From a virus (taxonomy: Duplodnaviria > Heunggongvirae > Uroviricota > Caudoviricetes), in IMG/VR virus record IMGVR_UViG_3300045988_005753: 64,000 nt of DNA; one strand, given 5' to 3'. The notes beneath the pieces were generated by a model. It did no database searches and had not been told where the DNA came from. It saw only the letters and a program-made list of their open reading frames with translations. The first letter of the stretch is position 1, and every line of letters begins with the position of its first letter. Shown here one piece after another: positions 6,715 through 56,694 of the stretch. Position numbers and translations under genes: made by a program.

Positions 6715-12098
<5,384 letters not shown>

Positions 12099-18775: not shown

Positions 18776-19147
18776 ATGAAGTGGCTAGAGGAAGCTTTTA
18801 AAAATAATATTGGTGCAATTGTAGTTGGTATTTTTAGTGTTATCGGGATGTATACCACTATGCAAGTTTCAAGTGGTAAGCAAGAAGTGTCTGTCACAAC
18901 AAAGTTACAGCAGCTAGATAATTATTCCAAAAGTAACTATTCAGCTATTCGTGATTTACAGTCTGACATGAGACTAATTCAGCTAGGGATGGAGAACCAG
19001 AAAGTCCAGTTAGAGAATGTTAAGGGTGAGAATGCGAAACTTACCAAAACTCTTGATAAATTCTCTGACAGTGTGAACAATCTGGCCCAATCAGTATCAG
19101 CCTTGCAAGCTATTACTGAAAAGAACACAAAGAATACTGAAAAATAA
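18776..19147 (+). CDS. hypothetical membrane-anchored coiled-coil protein
   Basis: 123 aa; one N-terminal hydrophobic helix (IGAIVVGIFSVIGMY) then heptad-like region; overlapping stop/start with the upstream ORF. Confidence 0.4.
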   Translation: MKWLEEAFKNNIGAIVVGIFSVIGMYTTMQVSSGKQEVSVTTKLQQLDNYSKSNYSAIRDLQSDMRLIQLGMENQKVQLENVKGENAKLTKTLDKFSDSVNNLAQSVSALQAITEKNTKNTEK

Positions 19148-19184: not shown

Positions 19185-20084
19185 TTATTTACCTACTGAC
19201 AAAGGTGCTTCAATCTTCCCTGCATGTTGGTAGTTGTTAATACCACCAATAAAATCACTTGCAGTAAGATGTTTCAGGTCACTTAAAGTATTAAGTGGTA
19301 GACCAATCTCAAAAGTTGGTGCATGGAACTCTTCATTGTTCATCAGTTCATAAACCTGCTTCATATGGTTCTGATAAATCTGAGTATCTCCAAAGACACC
19401 TATCAAGTACCGTGGAGTGTATCCAGTCATCTTGCAAAGAACTTCTAAGATGAAGCCATAAGACGCAATGTTAAATGGAAGTCCTAAAAAGGTGTCTACA
19501 GAACGCTGATACCATTGCAAATCCACTTCACCTTCATTAGTGATATAAATCTGAAACAGAACATGACAAGGTGCTAAAGCCATTGAGTTTGCTGCAATAT
19601 CTGCTGCATTCCAAGCATTAACAAGCATGTAACGGTCTGTGATATCACCCTTCATCTTCGTTACTAAGGTCTCTAGTTGGTCTACAACACAACCATTATG
19701 ACCTTCGAAGTTTCTCCACTGGACCCCATAGATTCTCCCACCTGCATCTTCTAACCAATCTTGTTCAGAAGAATAATTAGAACTTAACCAGCGTTTAAAA
19801 TCATCTGACCAGATAGTCCAGCGTTCCCCATCATTTTCACCCCAAGTACGGTAACGGAGTTCACCAAGTTTATTCTCACCATTCAGGAACCATAAAGCTT
19901 CCCCAATAACTTGCCGTGTAAACACCTGTTTAGATGTTAAGAGTGGGAAACCAGTGCGCATATCAAAACGAAATTTTGGTGGAGCAAATGCAGAGATAAC
20001 ATCTCCAGTTCGTGTAGTACGCAGTTCACCAACGGATAAAACATGGTTCAGGATATTTTTGTAACTTGTATCTGCTTGTGACAT
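19185..20084 (-). CDS. thyA: thymidylate synthase
   Basis: 299 aa; contains the catalytic LAPCH motif with flanking QFY-type and RSxD-type context characteristic of ThyA. Confidence 0.85.
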   Translation of the reverse strand: MSQADTSYKNILNHVLSVGELRTTRTGDVISAFAPPKFRFDMRTGFPLLTSKQVFTRQVIGEALWFLNGENKLGELRYRTWGENDGERWTIWSDDFKRWLSSNYSSEQDWLEDAGGRIYGVQWRNFEGHNGCVVDQLETLVTKMKGDITDRYMLVNAWNAADIAANSMALAPCHVLFQIYITNEGEVDLQWYQRSVDTFLGLPFNIASYGFILEVLCKMTGYTPRYLIGVFGDTQIYQNHMKQVYELMNNEEFHAPTFEIGLPLNTLSDLKHLTASDFIGGINNYQHAGKIEAPLSVGK

Positions 20085-20085
20085 A

Positions 20086-20532
20086 TCAAAAGTGCCCTTT
20101 TACTTGTGGAACATAAATTTCAAAGGTGGCTTTACCATCCTCTGATGGTTTTGACTGTACCTTTGTAAATACACGGTTATCATACAGCTTCTCAAAGAAG
20201 TTTTCAAAAGGTAAATACACAGTGGCCTCTTCAGTAACTTTATGGAAAACTGTATGGAAAACTACACCATCAAGATTCTGGTAAAGCTCTTTGATGAAGT
20301 GGTCTTTCACAATCTGACTGCTAGTTGTTTCCAGCTTAATGTTCGAGATTGCTGAACCTACAGCCATATAGCCCATGACACGTTTCTTCTCAGTATGCTT
20401 AATCTTACCATCTTTGTAAGCCATAATGAGATTGGAGAGAATCTTCACACCATAATACTTTTCAAGGTGAGTGGGTACGCCATAAAAACCTAATGCGAAG
20501 TTTTCAGAGTGGATAATGTTTTCACGTTTCAT
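20086..20532 (-). CDS. hypothetical protein
   Basis: 148 aa ORF packed between thyA and the HTH gene. Confidence 0.45.
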   Translation of the reverse strand: MKRENIIHSENFALGFYGVPTHLEKYYGVKILSNLIMAYKDGKIKHTEKKRVMGYMAVGSAISNIKLETTSSQIVKDHFIKELYQNLDGVVFHTVFHKVTEEATVYLPFENFFEKLYDNRVFTKVQSKPSEDGKATFEIYVPQVKGHF

Positions 20533-20533
20533 A

Positions 20534-20833
20534 TTAATCTGCCAACCTTAAATTAAAATTAACACCAAATTTTTCACATACTCCCAACATATACTCAAGG
20601 GAGACATTACCAGTGAGATGAATTATGTTGGATACACGAGCCTGAGAGATACCACAAATTTTAGCAACTTGCTCTTGAGAAAGACCTCTGGATTTAATCT
20701 CTCTCTTAAAACGATGTGCAACGAAATCTCTCATTTCGTCTACATCCATTGGACAAATATAACTCTCCATTTCAGCCTCTCTATCAGCCTCCCAATCATC
20801 TTGTGGGGCATAAGGGTCAAAAACCTCATTCAT
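20534..20833 (-). CDS. helix-turn-helix (XRE-type) DNA-binding protein
   Basis: LSQEQVAKICGISQARVSNI is a canonical HTH motif; the track start at 20863 is a TTG, while the internal ATG at 20833 overlaps the upstream stop, so the shorter start is preferred. Confidence 0.5.
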   Translation of the reverse strand: MNEVFDPYAPQDDWEADREAEMESYICPMDVDEMRDFVAHRFKREIKSRGLSQEQVAKICGISQARVSNIIHLTGNVSLEYMLGVCEKFGVNFNLRLAD

Positions 20834-21038
20834 CTTTCTTCTTCCGTTTGCGTGAAGTATCAATCAACGAATCTATGTTTGTAGCCCTAACCTTTTCACG
20901 TTCATCATTAAGATAATCATCAAGAGCCTTTTCAATCTGTGAATCATCTTGACAGATAACTGTAAAGACTGTAAAGCCGTCTGTATCGTCAATTATCTTA
21001 CCATAACCGCTTCTGGGATGTAACTTTTTAAGAGCCAT
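20826..21038 (-). CDS. hypothetical small protein with basic C-terminus
   Basis: 70 aa ORF, 8-nt overlap with the downstream HTH gene. Confidence 0.4.
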   Translation of the reverse strand: MALKKLHPRSGYGKIIDDTDGFTVFTVICQDDSQIEKALDDYLNDEREKVRATNIDSLIDTSRKRKKKDE

Positions 21039-21039
21039 A

Positions 21040-21423
21040 TTAGATACCTGTGCAGCTTCTGTTTTCTAAGAAATACTCAACACCATACATAGCTTTTTGC
21101 ATCAAATCTTCTTTAAACTGGATACGATGGTTGAGCATAGCCTGTACATCAATATCATCATGGTGCTTCTCTTTAATATTTGCAGATTGCAGGAAATACT
21201 CTGCAAGAACGCGATATTGATAGTCAGTCACCTTGTCAGTCATCTCTGTCAAAGATTCTTCAGAGATTGGTTTAAGTAGCTCACCATTAGCTAGAGCAAC
21301 ACCTTTTACAATCTGGCAAGTATCTTCTGGAACACCTGACAAGTCCACATTTGGGAGTTCTGTTGCATTGACTGGTAAATTCATTGCCATAACCATTGCA
21401 GCAGCTAATAAAATCTTTTTCAT
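21040..21423 (-). CDS. secreted/periplasmic protein with N-terminal signal peptide
   Basis: MKKILLAAAMVMAMNLPVNA has the n-, h- and AxA-like cleavage features of a Sec signal peptide; GAGG 5 nt upstream of the ATG. Confidence 0.5.
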   Translation of the reverse strand: MKKILLAAAMVMAMNLPVNATELPNVDLSGVPEDTCQIVKGVALANGELLKPISEESLTEMTDKVTDYQYRVLAEYFLQSANIKEKHHDDIDVQAMLNHRIQFKEDLMQKAMYGVEYFLENRSCTGI

Positions 21424-21467
21424 AATGACCTCAAAGTTATATTAAATTTTGTATTACATTGAGTATA

Positions 21468-21496
21468 AAAATAAGCTATAACACCTGACTTGTCAA
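21468..21496 (-). promoter_or_regulatory. candidate sigma70-like promoter TTGACA-N17-TATTTT (read on the - strand)
   Basis: Reverse complement of 21491-21496 is TTGACA; a TATTTT hexamer follows after a 17-nt spacer; lies about 45 nt upstream of the 21423 start. Confidence 0.3.
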
Positions 21497-21530
21497 CAGA
21501 TTTTATAGCTTATTTGGCAGATTTTTTATA

Positions 21531-21641
21531 AGGCTACTGCCATCCTTCCATACATTACCTAACCAAGCCGAACATCACACAACCAGACCGAGCCGCACCC
21601 CGCCTTATTAAAAGACCCTGTTTAAAGACCTTTTAAAAAGG
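21531..21641 (-). repeat. intergenic module copy 1: GT-rich tract (CA-rich on + strand) plus conserved ~39-nt AT-rich core
   Basis: + strand 21531-21602 has almost no G or T runs (GCCGCACC motif); core CCTTATTAAAAGACCCTGTTTAAAGACCTTTTAAAAAGG at 21603-21641 is nearly identical to 22878-22915. Confidence 0.5.
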
Positions 21642-21657
21642 AGCCTCCAAAGAGGCT
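21635..21657 (-). terminator. rho-independent terminator after gene 21669..22109
   Basis: AGCCTC (21642-21647) and GAGGCT (21652-21657) form a stem; on the - strand it is followed by CC then TTTTT. Confidence 0.45.
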
Positions 21658-21668
21658 ACCTAGTCAAC

Positions 21669-22109
21669 TTAGAAAGGTTTTCTACGTTGCTTGTTAATGT
21701 TAGCTTTCATAGCAGCTAAATGGTTTTGCTGTTCAATTAGTCGTGAACGTTCTTGATGGCTAAGTGCCATAGTGTTCACATTCTCAATTGCTTGAGTGGC
21801 TTGCTTTAAAGCTCGACCAATCTTACCAGACATTTTACGTTTTGCAATAGTTGCTTGATGTTTAGGCTCAACCACACGATAACCAACACCCATTGAAGCA
21901 ACCAGATAAATCTTCTCTTCTTTAAGAAGCTTTTCAATAAACTTCTCAAGTCGGTTTAGACGTGTAAGTGCATAAGCCTTCATTTCATCTTCGTACTTAA
22001 CAATGTCACCTTGATAAGTTGGCTTCACAATACCTAAGAAGGTATCCATCTCAGAGTGTGATACAGTGTCACCGTAACTAAACTTTGCTGCTAATGCTTT
22101 TGTATTCAT
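21669..22109 (-). CDS. hypothetical protein
   Basis: 146 aa ORF, basic C-terminus. Confidence 0.45.
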   Translation of the reverse strand: MNTKALAAKFSYGDTVSHSEMDTFLGIVKPTYQGDIVKYEDEMKAYALTRLNRLEKFIEKLLKEEKIYLVASMGVGYRVVEPKHQATIAKRKMSGKIGRALKQATQAIENVNTMALSHQERSRLIEQQNHLAAMKANINKQRRKPF

Positions 22110-22111
22110 AA

Positions 22112-22717
<606 letters not shown>

Positions 22718-22790
22718 TTAGTTGATTGTTAAGTTGTTTGTAAAGAACCCTCAATAGAAGACTCTTTAGAAACTTGGTAGATTTTTAACG

Positions 22791-23121
22791 TGGCTACTAC
22801 CATCCACCCATACCATACCATACCAAACCTGACCAAATCTTGCCGCACCCAACCTGACCTCGCCTAACCTTACCACACCTCATTAAAAGACCCTTTTAAA
22901 GACCTTTTAAAAAGGTAAGTCTCATTTTAATGTAGCTGAGACTAACTACCCATACCTTACCGCACCGGACCTTACCGGACCGCACATCGCCGCACCAAAC
23001 CAAACATCACATTACCTGACCTCACCGCGCCTTACCATACCTCACTTAAAAACCCTCTTAGAAAGACTCTTAAGTGATGCTGGTGAGTACCCGTTGGTTT
23101 ATGCTGCTCAGTATACTCACC
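22791..23121 (-). repeat. intergenic module copies 2 and 3: two tandem units of hairpin + AT-rich core + GT-rich tract
   Basis: Hairpins GGTGAGTA/TACTCACC (23082-23121) and AGTCTCA/TGAGACT (22918-22943); core at 22878-22915 and a degenerate core at 23046-23072; CA-rich tracts 22791-22877 and 22945-23046 with GCCGCACC and TACCATACC repeats. Confidence 0.5.
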
Positions 23122-23133
23122 AAATTTTCTATG

Positions 23134-23322
23134 TCAACAACTTTCTAATAAAGTTTTATGAAGATTTTGCTTAACAACTCGCCTCACATGCCTATGTTCT
23201 TTCTTAATAAAGAGTGACCTCTTCTTGATAGAGCGCCTATTCTTGTAAGTATTACTAGGATACTTATCATGAACCGGACAACAACTACCCGGATTTGTAA
23301 ACTTGATAATCTCTCTTTTCAC
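23134..23322 (-). CDS. hypothetical small basic protein
   Basis: 62 aa ORF whose start overlaps the ligase stop. Confidence 0.35.
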   Translation of the reverse strand: MKREIIKFTNPGSCCPVHDKYPSNTYKNRRSIKKRSLFIKKEHRHVRRVVKQNLHKTLLESC

Positions 23323-24422
23323 TATTCATAATCCCTAATAACGAGACCAACAGGGAACTGTAAAGACCCCTTACGAGTCATCTTCTGGAACTGAACCGTT
23401 AAAGGCTTCCCGATAAACTCTTCAGGATGCTCAGCAAGATACTGTTTCTTCTCATGAGTAGTCTTCCATGAGACATCTACAAAGACGTTAGGAAGAGTCT
23501 CTACAACGAACTTGCCATGACCACGTTTATCGGTCTTGACACCAGTCACTTTAAACTCTTCAGTGTGCATCTTCTTGTGCTTAATCAAGAAATATGAACG
23601 GTGACAACACTCATAGAAGGAGTCTTCAGAGATTGAACGGTACATTGCACCTTCAAACTTAGCTTCAACCCACTTATCATGGGCTTCGTCAAACTCTTCC
23701 CAAGAATTTACACGGATAGTCTGTACAGGAACAACTCTACAGGTATCCCCAAGCTCAACAATGGGTGAGTTATCGATAACTTCACGACGCTCAGGCCAAG
23801 ATTTTGAATTGTCACAGATATCATACCAGTAGAATTTAAGAAGGTGACGGTCTGGATTGTCAGCATTCTTAATCATAGACACAATATCTTCTAAGTCCCA
23901 ACCATGAGCATAAATCTCGCCATCAAAGTCTTCAACTTGCGGGTGTAATTTAAGCAACAAAAGCAAATCTGGGATTAGTTCTGCTGGAACGTTGTAAACA
24001 GTATTCTCACGAGAATAAGCCGTGAAACTAACTGTATCAGCATCTCTTGAAATTCTACAACGGACACCATCAAGCTTTGGTTGAGCATCAGCAGGGAACT
24101 TCAGATACTTTGCATGACTAACCTTTGCAGCGTCATGAGCAAGCTGTACACCTACCTTCTCAGTATTCTGTGCAGACTCTTTTGTGTAAGCATAACCCTT
24201 GCGGTCAACTTGCTTTTTATACTTAGCAGCAACTTCAAAGAGAGCTTGCTGTTCAGCGTTACGCTCATTCTTTTTACCGATGTTTTTAGGTTCTGCTGTA
24301 TACTCTTCAAACATCATCTTGCCATTTTCTTTACCGTAGGTTGTAATAACTTTGTCACCTACAGCAACACATGACCAAACGTTGAAGGAACCATCTTTAT
24401 TTTGTTTGTACAGAATTGTCAT
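23322..24422 (-). CDS. ATP-dependent DNA ligase
   Basis: 366 aa; KLDGVRC matches ligase motif I (KxDG adenylation lysine). Confidence 0.75.
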   Translation of the reverse strand: MTILYKQNKDGSFNVWSCVAVGDKVITTYGKENGKMMFEEYTAEPKNIGKKNERNAEQQALFEVAAKYKKQVDRKGYAYTKESAQNTEKVGVQLAHDAAKVSHAKYLKFPADAQPKLDGVRCRISRDADTVSFTAYSRENTVYNVPAELIPDLLLLLKLHPQVEDFDGEIYAHGWDLEDIVSMIKNADNPDRHLLKFYWYDICDNSKSWPERREVIDNSPIVELGDTCRVVPVQTIRVNSWEEFDEAHDKWVEAKFEGAMYRSISEDSFYECCHRSYFLIKHKKMHTEEFKVTGVKTDKRGHGKFVVETLPNVFVDVSWKTTHEKKQYLAEHPEEFIGKPLTVQFQKMTRKGSLQFPVGLVIRDYE

Positions 24423-24427
24423 TCAAA

Positions 24428-24952
24428 TTACCTTAGCATGTGTGATTTTACTGGAATAAAGATACCAAATTGTGAGACTGCTAAACCAGATAGTGACATA
24501 CACTGTTCAGGTAAGTACACAAAAACCCCTGTGTAGAAGTCTATAAAAGAACCATCATCTTGTTTGCAGGCTAGTTTTCCATAACCATAGTTGTACAACT
24601 TTAATGAACCATCATCATACTTTAAGTAGTTCTTGAACTGAACATTAAAAGCATATTCAGAGAACCTTGTGTACAGGTCATAAAGCAATCCAATACTGTC
24701 GTCGACTATTGCTACACCAAACTTTTTACAAATATCTACATAGTTTTTGTATAATTTATTATGATTTTCAGGTGTTGCAAAGTTTGTATACCAATGTTCT
24801 AAGATAGATAACTTAATTGGCTGATTTTTAGAATATTCTAATACCTTCATGTCATACCAAGATTTCCTAAGTCTGACATCATCTAGCCTTAAATTTTGAG
24901 ACACTTCGCGGAAGTTTTTGATGATTATATTTCTGCGCCTATTGTCAATCAT
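24428..24952 (-). CDS. hypothetical protein
   Basis: Track ORF 24428..24985 trimmed to the ATG at 24952, which abuts the upstream stop at 24955. Confidence 0.4.
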   Translation of the reverse strand: MIDNRRRNIIIKNFREVSQNLRLDDVRLRKSWYDMKVLEYSKNQPIKLSILEHWYTNFATPENHNKLYKNYVDICKKFGVAIVDDSIGLLYDLYTRFSEYAFNVQFKNYLKYDDGSLKLYNYGYGKLACKQDDGSFIDFYTGVFVYLPEQCMSLSGLAVSQFGIFIPVKSHMLR

Positions 24953-24954
24953 AA

Positions 24955-25146
24955 TCAATCCTCTGAGTGATACCAAGTGTTGCAAGCATTACATGCGTAA
25001 AGCTCTAAGTCATTTTTATCTGGTTTATGAAAACAGTTCGCTCCGCAGTGACAACGAAATGGTTTTCCACCAACTGTCAGAATGAAGGATTGAACCTTTC
25101 CATCAGGAGTTCGTACAGCATTTTTATGCTTGTCTTCTTTATTCAT
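24955..25146 (-). CDS. small Cys-rich (zinc-ribbon-like) protein
   Basis: 63 aa with CHC...C and CNAC cysteine pairs. Confidence 0.4.
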   Translation of the reverse strand: MNKEDKHKNAVRTPDGKVQSFILTVGGKPFRCHCGANCFHKPDKNDLELYACNACNTWYHSED

Positions 25147-25302
25147 TTGTGCTATTGCCTTTGTCAGATTTCATATAGGACATGTTACTACGCCTTTTAA
25201 TAAAATGTACAACGCATTTTGGTGTATCCTTTGCGTCTTTGATGTGCAATCTCTCGAAACTGTGCACTGTGAAGGTTGCATCTGTCATTGTTTGCTTAGG
25301 TT

Positions 25303-25509
25303 TCATTTTCTCTTACCACCAATCTCTACGTCGATAACTTGAACATCGCCAGCAACATCAAACTTATGAATGATGCTTTCAACAGTGTAAGTCCAACCAT
25401 CAATGCGAACCAACTCACCTTCTCGTGGGACGATTGGATTACGTTGAGCTACGGTTGTAGTGGAGTGAACAACATCATAACGATAGATATAGTTTACTAA
25501 TACTTCCAT
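25303..25509 (-). CDS. hypothetical protein
   Basis: Track ORF 25303..25608 overlaps the lipoprotein gene; the internal ATG at 25509 has GAGG 8 nt upstream and starts just after the lipoprotein stop. Confidence 0.35.
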   Translation of the reverse strand: MEVLVNYIYRYDVVHSTTTVAQRNPIVPREGELVRIDGWTYTVESIIHKFDVAGDVQVIDVEIGGKRK

Positions 25510-25519
25510 CGTGAAAACC

Positions 25520-25777
25520 TCACTCAATAACCGTGGTATGTGATTGACTATTTTTGCCATAGTTATAAGATGTTGTTGTTTGAGAGTTTGGACATCTGAC
25601 AACAACAATATCTCTGCTTATAGCATCACCATTGAGTTTGTAGATTTTGCAGTCTTGCATCTCTGGAGGGAGGCTGTAAGAATCATCTTTGATTTCATAA
25701 GATGGGTTGCAGCCAGCCAGAAAAATTACTCCAAGTGCAACCATTGCTTTCACACAACCCTTAACCTTATTGTTCAC
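25520..25777 (-). CDS. predicted lipoprotein
   Basis: 85 aa; MNNKVKGCVKAMVALGVIFLAGC has a basic n-region, hydrophobic core and an L-A-G-C lipobox. Confidence 0.5.
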   Translation of the reverse strand: MNNKVKGCVKAMVALGVIFLAGCNPSYEIKDDSYSLPPEMQDCKIYKLNGDAISRDIVVVRCPNSQTTTSYNYGKNSQSHTTVIE

Positions 25778-25909
25778 GATAGTCTACCTCTCTGTATGTT
25801 TTTAAATAGTGAGTGATGAGTTCTGGTAATTCACTACGTTTAACGTTTGAACGAAGAAGTGTCCAGTCAAAACCTTTACCAACCCTTCCCCAGAGACTGT
25901 ACATTTTCT

Positions 25910-26143
25910 TCATAGCAACTCCAGAATATCAATACGTTCGCCTTTGAGTACTCCAGTACGGTCTTTTGCAATCTTACCATCAACGATAAGGATGTGTGTA
26001 GACCTTAAAGCGTCGTTGTTAAAGGTTTTTACGAACTTGCTAGGCATGACTACAATGGACATCTCCTGAATTAACTCTGGAGTGTAGCAGTTATCATGAA
26101 GTTGCTGAATAACGTCTGCAAGTGTCATTTTTGATGTCTCCAA
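25910..26143 (-). CDS. hypothetical protein
   Basis: 77 aa ORF in the early leftward operon. Confidence 0.4.
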   Translation of the reverse strand: METSKMTLADVIQQLHDNCYTPELIQEMSIVVMPSKFVKTFNNDALRSTHILIVDGKIAKDRTGVLKGERIDILELL

Positions 26144-26340
26144 TATTCAATATCTACAAGTTCTTGTGCAATACTTTTAAGGTTACTTTTAAGGAAAACT
26201 TTCTCACCACCAGACATGGAAGTGTTATCAATGAGTCTATTCATTCTCTCAAACAACTTCTGCTTACGGTTCTTGATAGTTTCCTTTGATGCACCTTTCA
26301 TCATTGCTGCATGGGTTCTTCCACGGTGGCTCATAATCAC
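26125..26340 (-). CDS. hypothetical basic protein
   Basis: 71 aa ORF immediately downstream of the polymerase gene. Confidence 0.4.
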   Translation of the reverse strand: MIMSHRGRTHAAMMKGASKETIKNRKQKLFERMNRLIDNTSMSGGEKVFLKSNLKSIAQELVDIEYWRHQK

Positions 26341-26395
26341 TCCTATATAAGATATTGTATATGGTACTCTTCCATGAGCACCTTGTCAATACTAA

Positions 26396-29095
26396 TCAGT
26401 GAACCTCAAGCCAGCTTTTACCAACCTTACCAGTACCTGTAACAAGTGTTTCTTTCTTAAGACCTAAGTTTTTAGAAGCTTGTCCATAATACCAGTCAGT
26501 AACTGCTTTCACTTCTGCCGTCATACTTTCTGGACATTCCCAGCTTGTTTCATCGTGATATGCGCAGAGTAAACGAGCACCAATAGCTGGTTGACGACCA
26601 TTTAACTTCATCAAACCTTCGTCAATCATACGACGACAAGCAAGGTTAATTGCCTCATTTTGAATCTGAGCCTCTGAACCCATCAAAAGGTAGTTCAACA
26701 GTTTGTGTGGAGATTTACACCACAACCAAGCTCCAGCAACCTTTACAAAACCCCCTTTAGAGATTGCAGCAGTCTTACCAAACACCTCTTCAAGTGCCTT
26801 TTTAGTTGCTTTGTAGTCAGCTTCCAAGTCATCTAGCAGCTTCTTAATTTTAGGCAAACGGATAAAGTAAGTCTGTTTAGTCAGCGCACCTTCCTGAGTA
26901 GTTGCAGCCTTAATCGTCTTAGCAAACTTCTCATCACCTGCACCGAACAGCAGTGCATAGATACCATTCTTAGCTTTCTTACGACCCTTACTAATCTCAT
27001 GAAGAAGGTTCTCATCCTGAGTAGCACGACAAGTCAAGATGTCCTGCTCATCATTCAAGCTAAAGTAAATACTATTCAGTGTATGCGCATCAGTCCCTGA
27101 ATAGACAACGTACAGGTCATTCTCAGAGTCATAACGAAGGTACTTATCAATCTCTGGGTTGAGGTACTCATCAAAGTGTTTGCAGTAATAGCGTCCATCT
27201 TCTTGACGAATAAACTCAATCTCTTCTTTACCTTGCGTTACCGCTTTGGTGAAGTCTTTATCACCCATAAAGTTACAAAGCAGAACTAACTGGGCCGAGT
27301 TCATATCTACAGAGACAACGTTAGTACCTTCCTCACAAATCCACACTGCCCTCATTGGTTCCCCATAGACAGCAGCACCAGACGGTACGTTTACAATACC
27401 ATATTGTGTCATACGTCCAGTTGAAGTACCAAACACCATTGCACCAGCACTAAGTCGACCATCAGGACGAATCTGGTTCAACCAACCTTTTTCATCATCC
27501 TTTGAGTTCTCAATAGTTCTGCGTCTGTGCATCAAAGTATAGTACTTAGCAATCTTCTGTCCAAGCTCACCTTCAATCGTATCATAAGATGATTCAGTAA
27601 GTTTTGGTGAAGTACGGATTAAGCAAGGCTCAAGCAAATCTGTGTACTTCTTCACAGACCAGTTATGCTCAATGTACTGGACACCTTCATGCTCAACATA
27701 GCTCAAACCACACCGCTCAACCATTTCCTGCCACTTAGGATGCTTTGTAATCATCTTTTTATTGTCTTTGAAACGACAAACTTTGACAGGGCGACCATCT
27801 GAGTCTTTCTTGTAATTCCAATCATCTGGAATCCAGCCAACTGATTTCAAGTAGTCTTTAACAACTGCTACCTGAGTCATGCGAGAAACTTCGAACTCAA
27901 TTGGTGTATATGGTGCATCAATCAAACCTGTGTAGCGACTTGACTCAAGTTCAAAGTGGTTAACAACATGACTGTTATAGTACTTCACAGTTTTGACTGT
28001 TTTTACTGGCTTCCAGTCTTTGCATTTCTTACCAATCTTTGCGTTCAACTCATTGCAAATTGCACGAGCATCCTTCATTGCTACAAAACCTTCCTTGTAC
28101 TCTTCACCAGTTACAGAGTTGGTTGGCGTATAGCAATTTCTCTTTTCAATGTTAAAAATCTTTGTAGTTGGCTTACCAAATGGCTTGATTTCGTATGTCT
28201 GCATCTCACCGTTACGTACCTGCTGACGATACTTTGTTTTAGGGTACTTGGTAATTCTCTTCAGTCCATCTGCATGACCAAATGTTTCAACATACTCATT
28301 CCAAGCTTTTGCAAACTCTTCTCCAGTGACTTTACCTTTGGTCTTAATAGTTGGAGGTAGATGTGGTTCAACCTCTGAGGCAAGCTCATTAGTCAACTTG
28401 TCAAGCTCCTTTACATGGAACTCCATAAGCTCCTTATCAGCTTTCCAACCATTGATAGCTTGTTGACTCATCCAGAAAGATGTTTCTTTAGCTCGCATGT
28501 AGGTTTCATAAGTGTCTATGCCACACTTCTTAAGCTTGAGATACTCATTATCAAGTGCCCGTTTAGTTTTGGCGTTAATACGAATATCTTCTACAACACG
28601 AGTGAAGATTTCTGCATTCCAAACACCCCAATGCTCAATCTCTGGCTTACGAACACCAACACGAGCACCCCATGCAGCCAAGCCATGAGCACCTTTATAA
28701 CCCTTTGGAGTTGGTCTATCCATCCACTGAACACGAGACTGGATAAGAGAATCCTGAAAGAAATTACTCCACGGCTTACACTTTGGATTATCAAAGTTCC
28801 ATAAATCAGGGGCAATGTGATTGAAAACCCACCAGTCATAACCGAGACCATTATGGATGCAAAGACGTTTTGCCTTTAACGCAAACTCAATACCTTCACG
28901 TAAGCCACCCTTAATGTACTTGGTATACTTGTGACCGAGGATAGGCTCGTCTGTAAATACCCATACAGGCGGCTCTTCATCGTCAGATTTATAGTCTGCG
29001 AAAGCCATTACGTGAACTTTAGTGAACTCAAGGAGTAAACCATCAGTTTCTGTATCACCAACTAAATGTAAGTTTTTAAAATCTACGTTTTCCAT
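26396..29095 (-). CDS. DNA polymerase, family A, with 3'-5' proofreading exonuclease domain
   Basis: LVGDTETDGL matches the Exo I motif (Klenow FDTETDSL); KAKNGIYALLFGAGD and YHDE resemble motifs B and C. The track start at 29125 lacks an RBS, whereas the ATG at 29095 has GAGGGAG upstream. Confidence 0.8.
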   Translation of the reverse strand: MENVDFKNLHLVGDTETDGLLLEFTKVHVMAFADYKSDDEEPPVWVFTDEPILGHKYTKYIKGGLREGIEFALKAKRLCIHNGLGYDWWVFNHIAPDLWNFDNPKCKPWSNFFQDSLIQSRVQWMDRPTPKGYKGAHGLAAWGARVGVRKPEIEHWGVWNAEIFTRVVEDIRINAKTKRALDNEYLKLKKCGIDTYETYMRAKETSFWMSQQAINGWKADKELMEFHVKELDKLTNELASEVEPHLPPTIKTKGKVTGEEFAKAWNEYVETFGHADGLKRITKYPKTKYRQQVRNGEMQTYEIKPFGKPTTKIFNIEKRNCYTPTNSVTGEEYKEGFVAMKDARAICNELNAKIGKKCKDWKPVKTVKTVKYYNSHVVNHFELESSRYTGLIDAPYTPIEFEVSRMTQVAVVKDYLKSVGWIPDDWNYKKDSDGRPVKVCRFKDNKKMITKHPKWQEMVERCGLSYVEHEGVQYIEHNWSVKKYTDLLEPCLIRTSPKLTESSYDTIEGELGQKIAKYYTLMHRRRTIENSKDDEKGWLNQIRPDGRLSAGAMVFGTSTGRMTQYGIVNVPSGAAVYGEPMRAVWICEEGTNVVSVDMNSAQLVLLCNFMGDKDFTKAVTQGKEEIEFIRQEDGRYYCKHFDEYLNPEIDKYLRYDSENDLYVVYSGTDAHTLNSIYFSLNDEQDILTCRATQDENLLHEISKGRKKAKNGIYALLFGAGDEKFAKTIKAATTQEGALTKQTYFIRLPKIKKLLDDLEADYKATKKALEEVFGKTAAISKGGFVKVAGAWLWCKSPHKLLNYLLMGSEAQIQNEAINLACRRMIDEGLMKLNGRQPAIGARLLCAYHDETSWECPESMTAEVKAVTDWYYGQASKNLGLKKETLVTGTGKVGKSWLEVH

Positions 29096-29290
29096 TTTTA
29101 CTCCCTCTAAAATCATTAACCCCATACATTACTGCAAAAAATTATAAAAAGCAAGTTGACAATACACTTGACAAGGTGTTAATCTTTGCGAAGTGGGTTT
29201 TTACTTAAAAGGTTACTTAACAGTTTAACTATACAGATACTTTAGAACTCTTAAAAGATTATTTAATAGCTTTTAAAAAGCTTTAAAGTA

Positions 29291-56183: not shown

Positions 56184-56531
56184 ATGACATTTAAAGAGTT
56201 CTGTCAAGCTACTTTCATAATTGTTTTCTTAGTTGGGGCAGGTGTCTGGGGAGGATACTCTTACAGAGACTACCAAGTTGCTGAAGCTGAGTTAAGTAAT
56301 GAGAAACTAATAAGTGTTGCTAAAGATGCTTATCAGGAAGGTTTAGCCACACTCAGCACCAATTACAAAAATGATTTGAAAGATGTGCTTGCTAAGAATA
56401 AGCATACAAAAGAGGTACTAACATATGAAAAAACTAAGCCAGAGTTTTATAATGTTTGTGTTACTGATAATTATGTCAGGGTGTTCAACGAACAAAGTGA
56501 ACAGTACATTCAAAAACTCCCAAGTAAGTGA
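56184..56531 (+). CDS. i-spanin-like protein (Rz-like)
   Basis: 115 aa with one N-terminal transmembrane helix (FIIVFLVGAGVWGG) and a charged helical remainder; the 3' end overlaps a lipoprotein ORF in another frame. Confidence 0.4.
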   Translation: MTFKEFCQATFIIVFLVGAGVWGGYSYRDYQVAEAELSNEKLISVAKDAYQEGLATLSTNYKNDLKDVLAKNKHTKEVLTYEKTKPEFYNVCVTDNYVRVFNEQSEQYIQKLPSK

Positions 56532-56694
56532 GAGTGACAAGTACACTCAAGAGGAGTCAAGATTCACTGTCAAAGGTAATACCGGTAGTGATGTGGCAGC
56601 AGCCCTTGAGTTTTACCGTGATGGATTCTACCAGTGTACAATCAAAGCTAATAACCTTATTGATATGATTTTATTAGGAAACAAACAGCAATGA
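56425..56694 (+). CDS. o-spanin-like lipoprotein (Rz1-like), overlapping in the +1 frame
   Basis: MKKLSQSFIMFVLLIIMSGC: signal peptide with an M-S-G-C lipobox; the ORF starts inside 56184..56531 in a different frame. Confidence 0.4.
   Translation: MKKLSQSFIMFVLLIIMSGCSTNKVNSTFKNSQVSESDKYTQEESRFTVKGNTGSDVAAALEFYRDGFYQCTIKANNLIDMILLGNKQQ

Follow-up and report, generated by a model that had tools for sequence, protein, structure and literature searches.

Two predicted exported accessory proteins encoded among the replication genes of a Felixounavirus

We analyzed two small genes in a 64-kb stretch of viral DNA (IMG/VR record IMGVR_UViG_3300045988_005753, 64,000 nucleotides; referred to here as the window), which comes from a Felixounavirus with ~95% DNA identity to Escherichia phage adrianh. 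One gene (25520..25777, minus strand) encodes an 85-amino-acid prolipoprotein that belongs to the phrog_902 family. The other (21040..21423, minus strand) encodes a 127-amino-acid secreted protein that belongs to phrog_4332. Judged from their export signals, both products are genuine exported accessory proteins. We tentatively propose that both are periplasmic accessory factors that act after adsorption, for example in superinfection exclusion at the stage of genome entry.

An earlier note on this DNA had described the two open reading frames (ORFs) as exported proteins encoded among early replication genes. Both ORFs are present on the minus strand, and their position in a replication-gene block is borne out by their neighbors. 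The leftward block (19185..29125) encodes thymidylate synthase, a Cro/CI-type regulator, DNA ligase, DNA polymerase, and the products of ~12 small genes annotated without a function; the lipoprotein gene lies between the DNA polymerase and ligase genes. GC skew switches sign across the block, matching gene orientation. The surrounding 10 kb has 93 to 95% DNA identity to many Felixounavirus genomes, including those of adrianh, wV8, and Salmonella phage Mushroom. Between 18.7 and 29.1 kb, a strongly hydrophobic N-terminal segment is found only in the lipoprotein, the secreted protein, and a putative holin. Both genes already stand in hundreds of deposited genomes as hypothetical proteins. Since most pairwise ratios of nonsynonymous to synonymous divergence (dN/dS) were between 0.02 and 0.10, we conclude that both ORFs are, by this measure, functional genes.

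The lipoprotein gene starts with GTG, preceded by GAGAGG, and its start overlaps the stop codon of an upstream gene encoding 48 amino acids. An alternative in-frame GTG at 25753 would give a 77-amino-acid form, comparable to the 78-amino-acid protein of wV8; the lipoprotein signal is valid from either start. As a criterion for lipoproteins, we used the pattern [LVI][ASTVI][GAS]C within the first ~35 residues, following a positively charged n-region and an uncharged hydrophobic h-region. The N-terminus reads MNNKVKGCVKAMVALGVIFLAGC followed by NPS, and it divides into a positive n-region (MNNKVKGCVK), an uncharged h-region (AMVALGVIF; N-terminal hydrophobicity maximum, 2.84), and the lipobox L-A-G-C (residues L20-A21-G22-C23, codons at 25709..25720, minus strand), the last read from the sequence and from a family-wide tabulation of lipoboxes. 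The mature protein would begin with a lipidated Cys23, followed by Asn at position +2 and Pro at position +3. The lipobox pattern by itself is within chance expectation, at ~1 occurrence per shuffled window and with 2 spurious hits in wrong-strand ORFs. Hence, the lipoprotein call was settled by family conservation: the lipobox Cys is kept in all 58 aligned homolog clusters. The mature domain comprises 63 amino acids from Cys23, 4 of them prolines, and is predicted to contain beta strands. Its dN/dS was 0.04 to 0.10 in most pairs; the value was 0.5 for the window and adrianh, a pair with only six differences. The gene is intact yet unannotated in adrianh (8178-8435), where an overlapping ORF with a TTG start is annotated in its place, and in phAPEC6 (2501-2746). 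Family counts based on annotation are therefore underestimates.

The lipoprotein matched phrog_902 with an E value of 7.8e-17 over residues 6 to 83. A tblastn search with the protein gave matches in 600 phage records, and a profile search gave 60 protein clusters. Across the 58 aligned sequences, three positions never vary (the lipobox Cys, P37, and C43), and C62-P63 and G74-K75 are kept in at least 90%. The window protein carries the family motifs Y-x-L-P, D-C-K-I-Y, V-V-R-C-P-N-S-x-T, and G-K. Lipobox variants in the family include LAGC, LVGC, LTAC, LTGC, LSGC, and ISGC. The +2 residue is Asp in at least 24 of the 58 members; in the Felix type, Asn occupies +2 and Pro occupies +3. By these matches, phrog_902/PF16225 is an uncharacterized phage lipoprotein family of which the window protein is a member. 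Homologs are named "hypothetical protein" or "Lipoprotein" in databases, with one named "putative spanin," and the homolog in Mooglevirus phage Maleficent is annotated as "membrane lipoprotein." The lipoprotein nature was thus noted previously by others, and the window adds one member to a known, uncharacterized family. What is new here is the breadth of the family, its stand-alone context in an early region, the split between members with Asp and those with other residues at +2, and the exclusion of the spanin and receptor-masking readings.

A precomputed PF16225 (PF16225.11) label, which we take to be DUF4884, is attached to 59 of the 60 homolog clusters, i.e., to all 59 full-length ones. 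The label was not reproduced when we ran hmmscan against Pfam-A with the window protein and 8 homologs, none of which matched it at an E value of ≤10. This mismatch is a discrepancy between resources rather than a feature of the sequence. In the literature searched, "PF16225" was not found, and "DUF4884" appeared only as an annotation label in the gene table of a T1-like phage.

The family spans at least seven unrelated lineages of virulent phages. Homologs were found in Ounavirinae (Felixounavirus and Mooglevirus), Vequintavirinae (4MG, A5-4, and Acinetobacter phage ABPH49), the jumbo genera Asteriusvirus (phAPEC6) and Eneladusvirus (Erwinia phage pEa_SNUABM_49), Saclayvirus (Acinetobacter), Vibrio Demerecviridae, and Schitoviridae (Vibrio phage BUCT194). 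The hosts include E. coli, Salmonella, Erwinia, Vibrio, and Acinetobacter, and protein identity is 30 to 45% across hosts, from Enterobacterales to Vibrio and Acinetobacter. Outside phages, we found one weak plasmid hit, and all contigs bearing a homolog are ≤352 kb in length; the family therefore looks phage restricted. At every locus inspected, the gene lies within a run of small hypothetical genes, with no tail fiber or lysis gene beside it. The BUCT194 copy is situated 3 kb from the left end of the genome; in N4-like phages, this is the early region. When the ORFs flanking the gene at nine loci were compared all against all, the lipoprotein itself was the sole shared product. By this comparison, the lipoprotein gene is a stand-alone cassette, and its partner must therefore be a host component or something generic.

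Both proteins look accessory. Among phage records, ~198 have the lipoprotein at ≥60% identity, versus 259 with the secreted protein. Hence, roughly a quarter of Ounavirinae records appear to have no lipoprotein, a figure to be read with the fact that some records are partial genomes. In Suspvirus SUSP1 (KT454805.2), the slot at 1609-1821 is equivalent to ~25520-25913 of the window and has neither the lipoprotein gene nor the 48-amino-acid gene. Instead, it has a 70-amino-acid gene whose product matches Pfam "Tad2-like" (Thoeris anti-defense 2-like; E = 4e-5, with 24.5 bits against a 25-bit cutoff). In this comparison, the locus behaves as a variable accessory slot. Synonymous divergence in the same genome pairs was 0.28 to 0.78 for the lipoprotein gene versus 0.12 to 0.22 for the secreted-protein gene (3- to 5-fold), which suggests that the lipoprotein region is a mosaic locus. 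In a CRISPRi-ART screen, the SUSP1 homolog of the secreted protein (AVU07_agp037) was scored "Not Fit" (PMC11879866 supplement).

The secreted-protein gene starts with ATG and has a GAGG ribosome-binding site. The earlier note had read a Sec-type signal peptide at its N-terminus, and this reading holds up. As a criterion for Sec export and cleavage by signal peptidase I, we looked for an n-region with Lys or Arg, an h-region of 7 to 15 hydrophobic residues, a c-region whose -3 and -1 positions are small, and absence of a lipobox Cys, and found all of these. The putative signal peptide (residues 1 to 20, codons at 21364..21423, minus strand; hydrophobicity, 2.73) has a proper n-region (MKK), h-region (ILLAAAMVMAM), and c-region (NLPVNA, followed by TE), with V at -3 and A at -1. 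Cleavage by signal peptidase I is predicted after VNA. The mature domain of 107 amino acids is predicted to be helical, with conserved Cys36 and Cys124. Identity is 95 to 100% across Felixounavirus and 30 to 37% in Mooglevirus and Suspvirus, whose homologs keep the signal peptide, the Ala at the cleavage site, C36, and C124. The signal peptide and Ala20 are kept even in homologs with only 32 to 34% identity; Ala20 is invariant across the three Ounavirinae genera, and the signals end in AAA in Maleficent and in ASA in SUSP1. The dN/dS for this gene was 0 to 0.08. An exhaustive HMMER search of 1.84 billion representative proteins returned six relatives, all Ounavirinae-like except for one spurious long protein. 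Since there were only six, we conclude that, as far as homology searching reaches, the family is confined to Ounavirinae-like phages. A structure model of the secreted protein, built from 5 near-identical sequences, had a predicted local distance difference test score of 39.6 and was unusable.

A sigma70-like promoter (TTGACA-17-TATTTT; 21468..21496, minus strand) was recognized by consensus match directly upstream of the secreted-protein gene; no other gene precedes this one in its transcription unit. This promoter is identical in adrianh, wV8, Mushroom, and SUSP1; Maleficent has a different sequence in the same place, reading TTGACA-16-TATACT. A terminator-like hairpin with a T-run (21642..21657, minus strand) ends the upstream unit (ORF 21669..22109). 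A second sigma70-like consensus match (TTGACA-17-TACCAT; 26361..26389, minus strand) lies just past the DNA polymerase stop codon, at the head of a series of small genes to which the lipoprotein gene belongs. Its TTGACA and the downstream sequence are kept in adrianh, wV8, and Mushroom.

We propose the following course of events. Both genes would be transcribed from promoters read by host RNA polymerase in the replication-gene block. Lgt, LspA, and Lnt would process the lipoprotein, whose lipid would anchor it to a membrane face on the periplasmic side, where its 63-amino-acid domain, predicted to be rich in beta strands, may be stabilized by a C43-C62 disulfide. It would work alone, on something common to many gammaproteobacteria or to incoming phages generally rather than on the receptor of its own phage; such a target, for instance a conserved component of the host envelope, is suggested by a stand-alone, dispensable mini-domain that is under purifying selection in many unrelated lytic phages. 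Its likeliest job would be protection of the infected cell once adsorption has occurred, with superinfecting phages excluded at genome entry or during passage across the periplasm. Possible functional parallels are T4 Imm and Sp, Ltp of Streptococcus phage TP-J34, and the entry-exclusion lipoproteins of plasmids. The secreted protein would be a helical periplasmic product of ~107 amino acids whose two ends are pinned by a disulfide, with an accessory role specific to Ounavirinae and of the same general kind. More speculatively, phrog_902/PF16225 might be a new, horizontally mobile, single-gene exclusion or "cell-claiming" factor of virulent phages that acts on a conserved component of the gammaproteobacterial envelope and thereby keeps many unrelated phages from delivering their genomes. 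Such a factor would explain acquisition by at least seven unrelated lytic lineages. The secreted Ounavirinae protein could then be a second, lineage-specific layer of the same strategy.

Several observations weigh against a role in exclusion. No experiment or homology connects either protein to it: both proteins and their homologs, searched against Pfam, NCBIfam, and PADLOC, gave nothing significant, with hits only at the level of the signal peptide (TrbK, EexN, and a fimbrial protein), and hhalign comparisons with T4 Sp, RI, and Imm were negative. Purifying selection on the mature lipoprotein is strong, which is unusual for an arms-race factor. The CRISPRi-ART screen discriminates poorly, since DNA ligase was also scored "Not Fit" (PMC11879866). 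Lastly, the promoters are consensus matches, and sigma70-like matches in the region numbered 38, not clearly above the 28.5 ± 5.9 found in shuffles; early expression of both genes is therefore something that we infer.

To our knowledge, exclusion and envelope factors of lytic phages are known mechanistically mainly from T4 (Imm and Sp) and T5 (Llp). If the lipoprotein is a general exclusion factor acting after adsorption, the design of phage cocktails would be affected, because one member could exclude another; Felixounaviruses and rV5-like phages are common candidates for therapy and biocontrol. Such a factor would also point to a conserved envelope step that many phages need, and it would give a function to a family listed as "hypothetical protein" in hundreds of genomes and unannotated in some. 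If both are accessory genes without a phenotype, little is lost.

One alternative to exclusion is that one or both proteins manipulate the host envelope or counter a defense by binding a conserved periplasmic or membrane factor of the host, such as a protease, a stress sensor like RcsF, a phospholipase, or the periplasmic portion of a membrane-bound defense system; the infected cell would thereby stay productive. The retention of 30 to 45% identity across hosts under purifying selection fits a conserved host target. Moreover, the lipoprotein stands alone, and the corresponding slot in SUSP1 holds the Tad2-like anti-defense candidate, so that the locus resembles a hotspot for accessory or counter-defense genes. 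However, our searches detected no similarity of either protein to a known inhibitor or anti-defense protein, the PADLOC search gave nothing relevant, and the idea is broad, with no target named. We consider this explanation rather unlikely.

A second alternative concerns lysis. A gene for a putative class III holin of 123 amino acids (18776..19147, plus strand) lies 1.9 kb from the secreted-protein gene. It is annotated as "holin" in adrianh and as "putative holin" in Maleficent, and its product is predicted to have one N-terminal transmembrane segment and a periplasmic coiled-coil C-terminus. The product also matched the Rz-like spanin family phrog_739 weakly (E = 0.009), so its identity as a holin is taken from annotation only. 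The earlier note had treated the location of the two genes outside a lysis module as significant. The location among replication genes stands, but the argument from absence from a lysis module is weak, because Felix-like phages have no lysis cassette and the putative holin gene is so close. Lysis genes are scattered in these phages (PMC4319497), and the set consists of a soluble endolysin, a putative class III holin, and a spanin pair (PMC4392139, PMC4319497).

The secreted protein might thus be an RI-like antiholin that delays lysis by binding the periplasmic domain of the class III holin, with the lipoprotein modulating the holin, the spanins, or the envelope late in infection. Given the proximity of the holin gene, this is the main rival for the secreted protein. 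T4 RI offers a parallel: it, too, is a small, secreted, helical protein of the periplasm, its gene lies away from the holin gene, beside tk, and the holin has in both cases one transmembrane segment and a periplasmic C-terminal domain. In contrast to this likeness in kind, no sequence similarity to RI was detected (hhalign probability, 0.2%). Between Felixounavirus and Mooglevirus, the holin is 90% identical, whereas the secreted protein, at 34%, is the most diverged product of the block, which argues against tight coevolution with the holin. The phages that carry a member of the lipoprotein family have unrelated lysis systems, and no neighbor of the gene is conserved. The literature searched gave no report of lysis inhibition for Felix-like phages; a paper on suppression of lysis by CSP1 was set aside, since CSP1 is an unrelated 60-kb phage. 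Overall, we regard a role in lysis control as fairly improbable for the pair.

The earlier note had named two ways in which such proteins might act, by masking receptors or by blocking DNA entry. A block to DNA entry remains plausible on the present analysis; receptor masking by these proteins did not survive it and is very unlikely. In that explanation, which follows T5 Llp and T1/phi80 Cor, an outer-membrane lipoprotein blocks the phage's own receptor and so would stop both superinfection and the loss of progeny on cell debris. The window protein resembles Llp and Cor in being a small, growth-dispensable lipoprotein with ~60 mature residues (the size class of Llp) and an internal cysteine pair, and the Felix-type Asn at +2 would by default sort it to the outer membrane. 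However, Felix-like phages use lipopolysaccharide, not a protein receptor (PMC8594841), and blocking an abundant glycan receptor during lytic growth is considered futile (PMC11990801). The genes for Llp and Cor adjoin that for the receptor-binding protein (PMC11990801), whereas the lipoprotein gene lies between those for polymerase and ligase, far from tail fiber genes, and no tail fiber gene lies near it in the 8 other lineages. Phages of E. coli, Vibrio, Acinetobacter, and Erwinia, across which the family is kept, cannot share one receptor. In Enterobacterales, Asp at +2 retains a lipoprotein in the inner membrane. Hence, for the many family members with Asp at this position, a 60-residue domain predicted to sit in the inner membrane cannot reach the outer-membrane surface. 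Among PDB chain sequences, the family profile gave 3 hits at the level of the signal peptide at an E value of ≤10, none of them a phage protein; structures of Llp are presumably present in PDB.

Least likely of all is a role for the lipoprotein as a second or alternative o-spanin. A canonical, overlapping spanin pair is already present in the window, at 56184..56694 (plus strand); we located it by tblastn with the Maleficent spanins (77 to 81% identity), and it consists of an i-spanin of 115 amino acids (56184..56531) and an o-spanin of 89 amino acids with the lipobox IMSGC (56425..56694). Although the lipoprotein, like Rz1-type o-spanins, is a small phage lipoprotein, and its homolog in Vibrio phage PhiImVa-1 is the one labeled "putative spanin," this candidate was rejected because of that pair; in addition, the Maleficent annotators named the spanins and called the lipoprotein homolog a membrane lipoprotein only, no i-spanin-like gene is adjacent here or in the 8 other lineages (the neighbors of 48 and 68 amino acids have no transmembrane segment), and the mature domain is not proline rich.

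The region around the two genes has further features. The ORF at 20086..20532 (minus strand, 148 amino acids) is a chimera in which the first ~111 residues correspond to adrianh_7/phrog_4116 and the last ~55 to the C-terminus of dihydrofolate reductase (phrog_316 profile positions 128 to 183). Relative to adrianh, wV8, and Mushroom, ~1.25 kb is missing near this ORF, comprising most of frd, two small genes, and the end of a third; the phage therefore appears to have no intact dihydrofolate reductase. At 24428..24985 (minus strand), between the ligase gene and a gene for a zinc-ribbon-like protein of 63 amino acids, lies an ORF of 174 to 185 amino acids that matches nothing in PHROG or Pfam. 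Phage adrianh has it (98% identity), and wV8, Mushroom, Maleficent, and SUSP1 do not; on this distribution, it is a strain-variable insertion.

Three intergenic tracts with a strict 5-nucleotide period (21558-21607, 22803-22892, and 22940-23044) read (CCNNN)n on the plus strand and have GG every 5 nucleotides on the gene strand, as in TATGG TATGG TATGG TTTGG TCAGG. No other tract of this kind occurs in the window. The first lies between the terminator and the promoter of the secreted-protein gene, and the others lie in the ~400-nucleotide leader of ORF 22112..22714. The 21-mer TTTAAAGACCTTTTAAAAAGG, "DR_4" in the wV8 annotation, is present in two exact copies, at 21621-21641 and 22895-22915. 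The tracts and the 21-mer could be an array that binds protein or RNA. These repeats flank a two-gene module (21669..22714, minus strand; phrog_5926 and phrog_4652) that has 98 to 99% protein identity in SUSP1, against 32 to 77% for its neighbors, and is absent from Maleficent. The module looks recently exchanged or mobile. The SUSP1 homolog of ORF 21669 was scored "Semi-Fit" in CRISPRi-ART (PMC11879866).

Exclusion after adsorption, the reading that we prefer, can be compared with several known systems. Ltp of TP-J34 is reportedly a similar membrane-tethered small lipoprotein, and it is said to share with the plasmid proteins TrbK, EexN, and TraT, and with the lipoprotein described here, the character of a small extracytoplasmic lipoprotein, in their case one that blocks incoming DNA after attachment. 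The difference is that Ltp and the entry-exclusion proteins come from resident elements, whereas the lipoprotein described here is encoded by a virulent phage. In addition, the NCBIfam matches to TrbK and EexN cover the signal peptide only, with E values of 0.019 to 0.14, far below the cutoff, and do not extend to the mature domain.

T4 offers a parallel in genome placement. T4 Sp is secreted and similar in size to the 127-amino-acid protein. However, hhalign gave a probability of 2.5% for Sp and the secreted-protein family, aligning signal-peptide residues 1 to 28 only, and 0.1% for Imm and the lipoprotein family; a search of PDB sequences with the secreted-protein profile, at an E value of ≤10, returned no relative and no match to Sp, only noise at the level of the signal peptide. 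The target of Sp is the tail lysozyme gp5. In the cryo-electron microscopy paper on Bas63, the Felixounavirus hub consists of gp20, gp21, gp18, and the tape measure protein; nowhere does that paper use the word "lysozyme," and the baseplate genes of the window were not scanned for one. What the two phages have in common is the placement of genes for small envelope or periplasmic proteins amid early replication genes. T4 has sp between genes 61 (primase) and 41 (helicase) and imm between gene 42 and gene 43 (polymerase), and this arrangement gives the exclusion proposed here a positional precedent.

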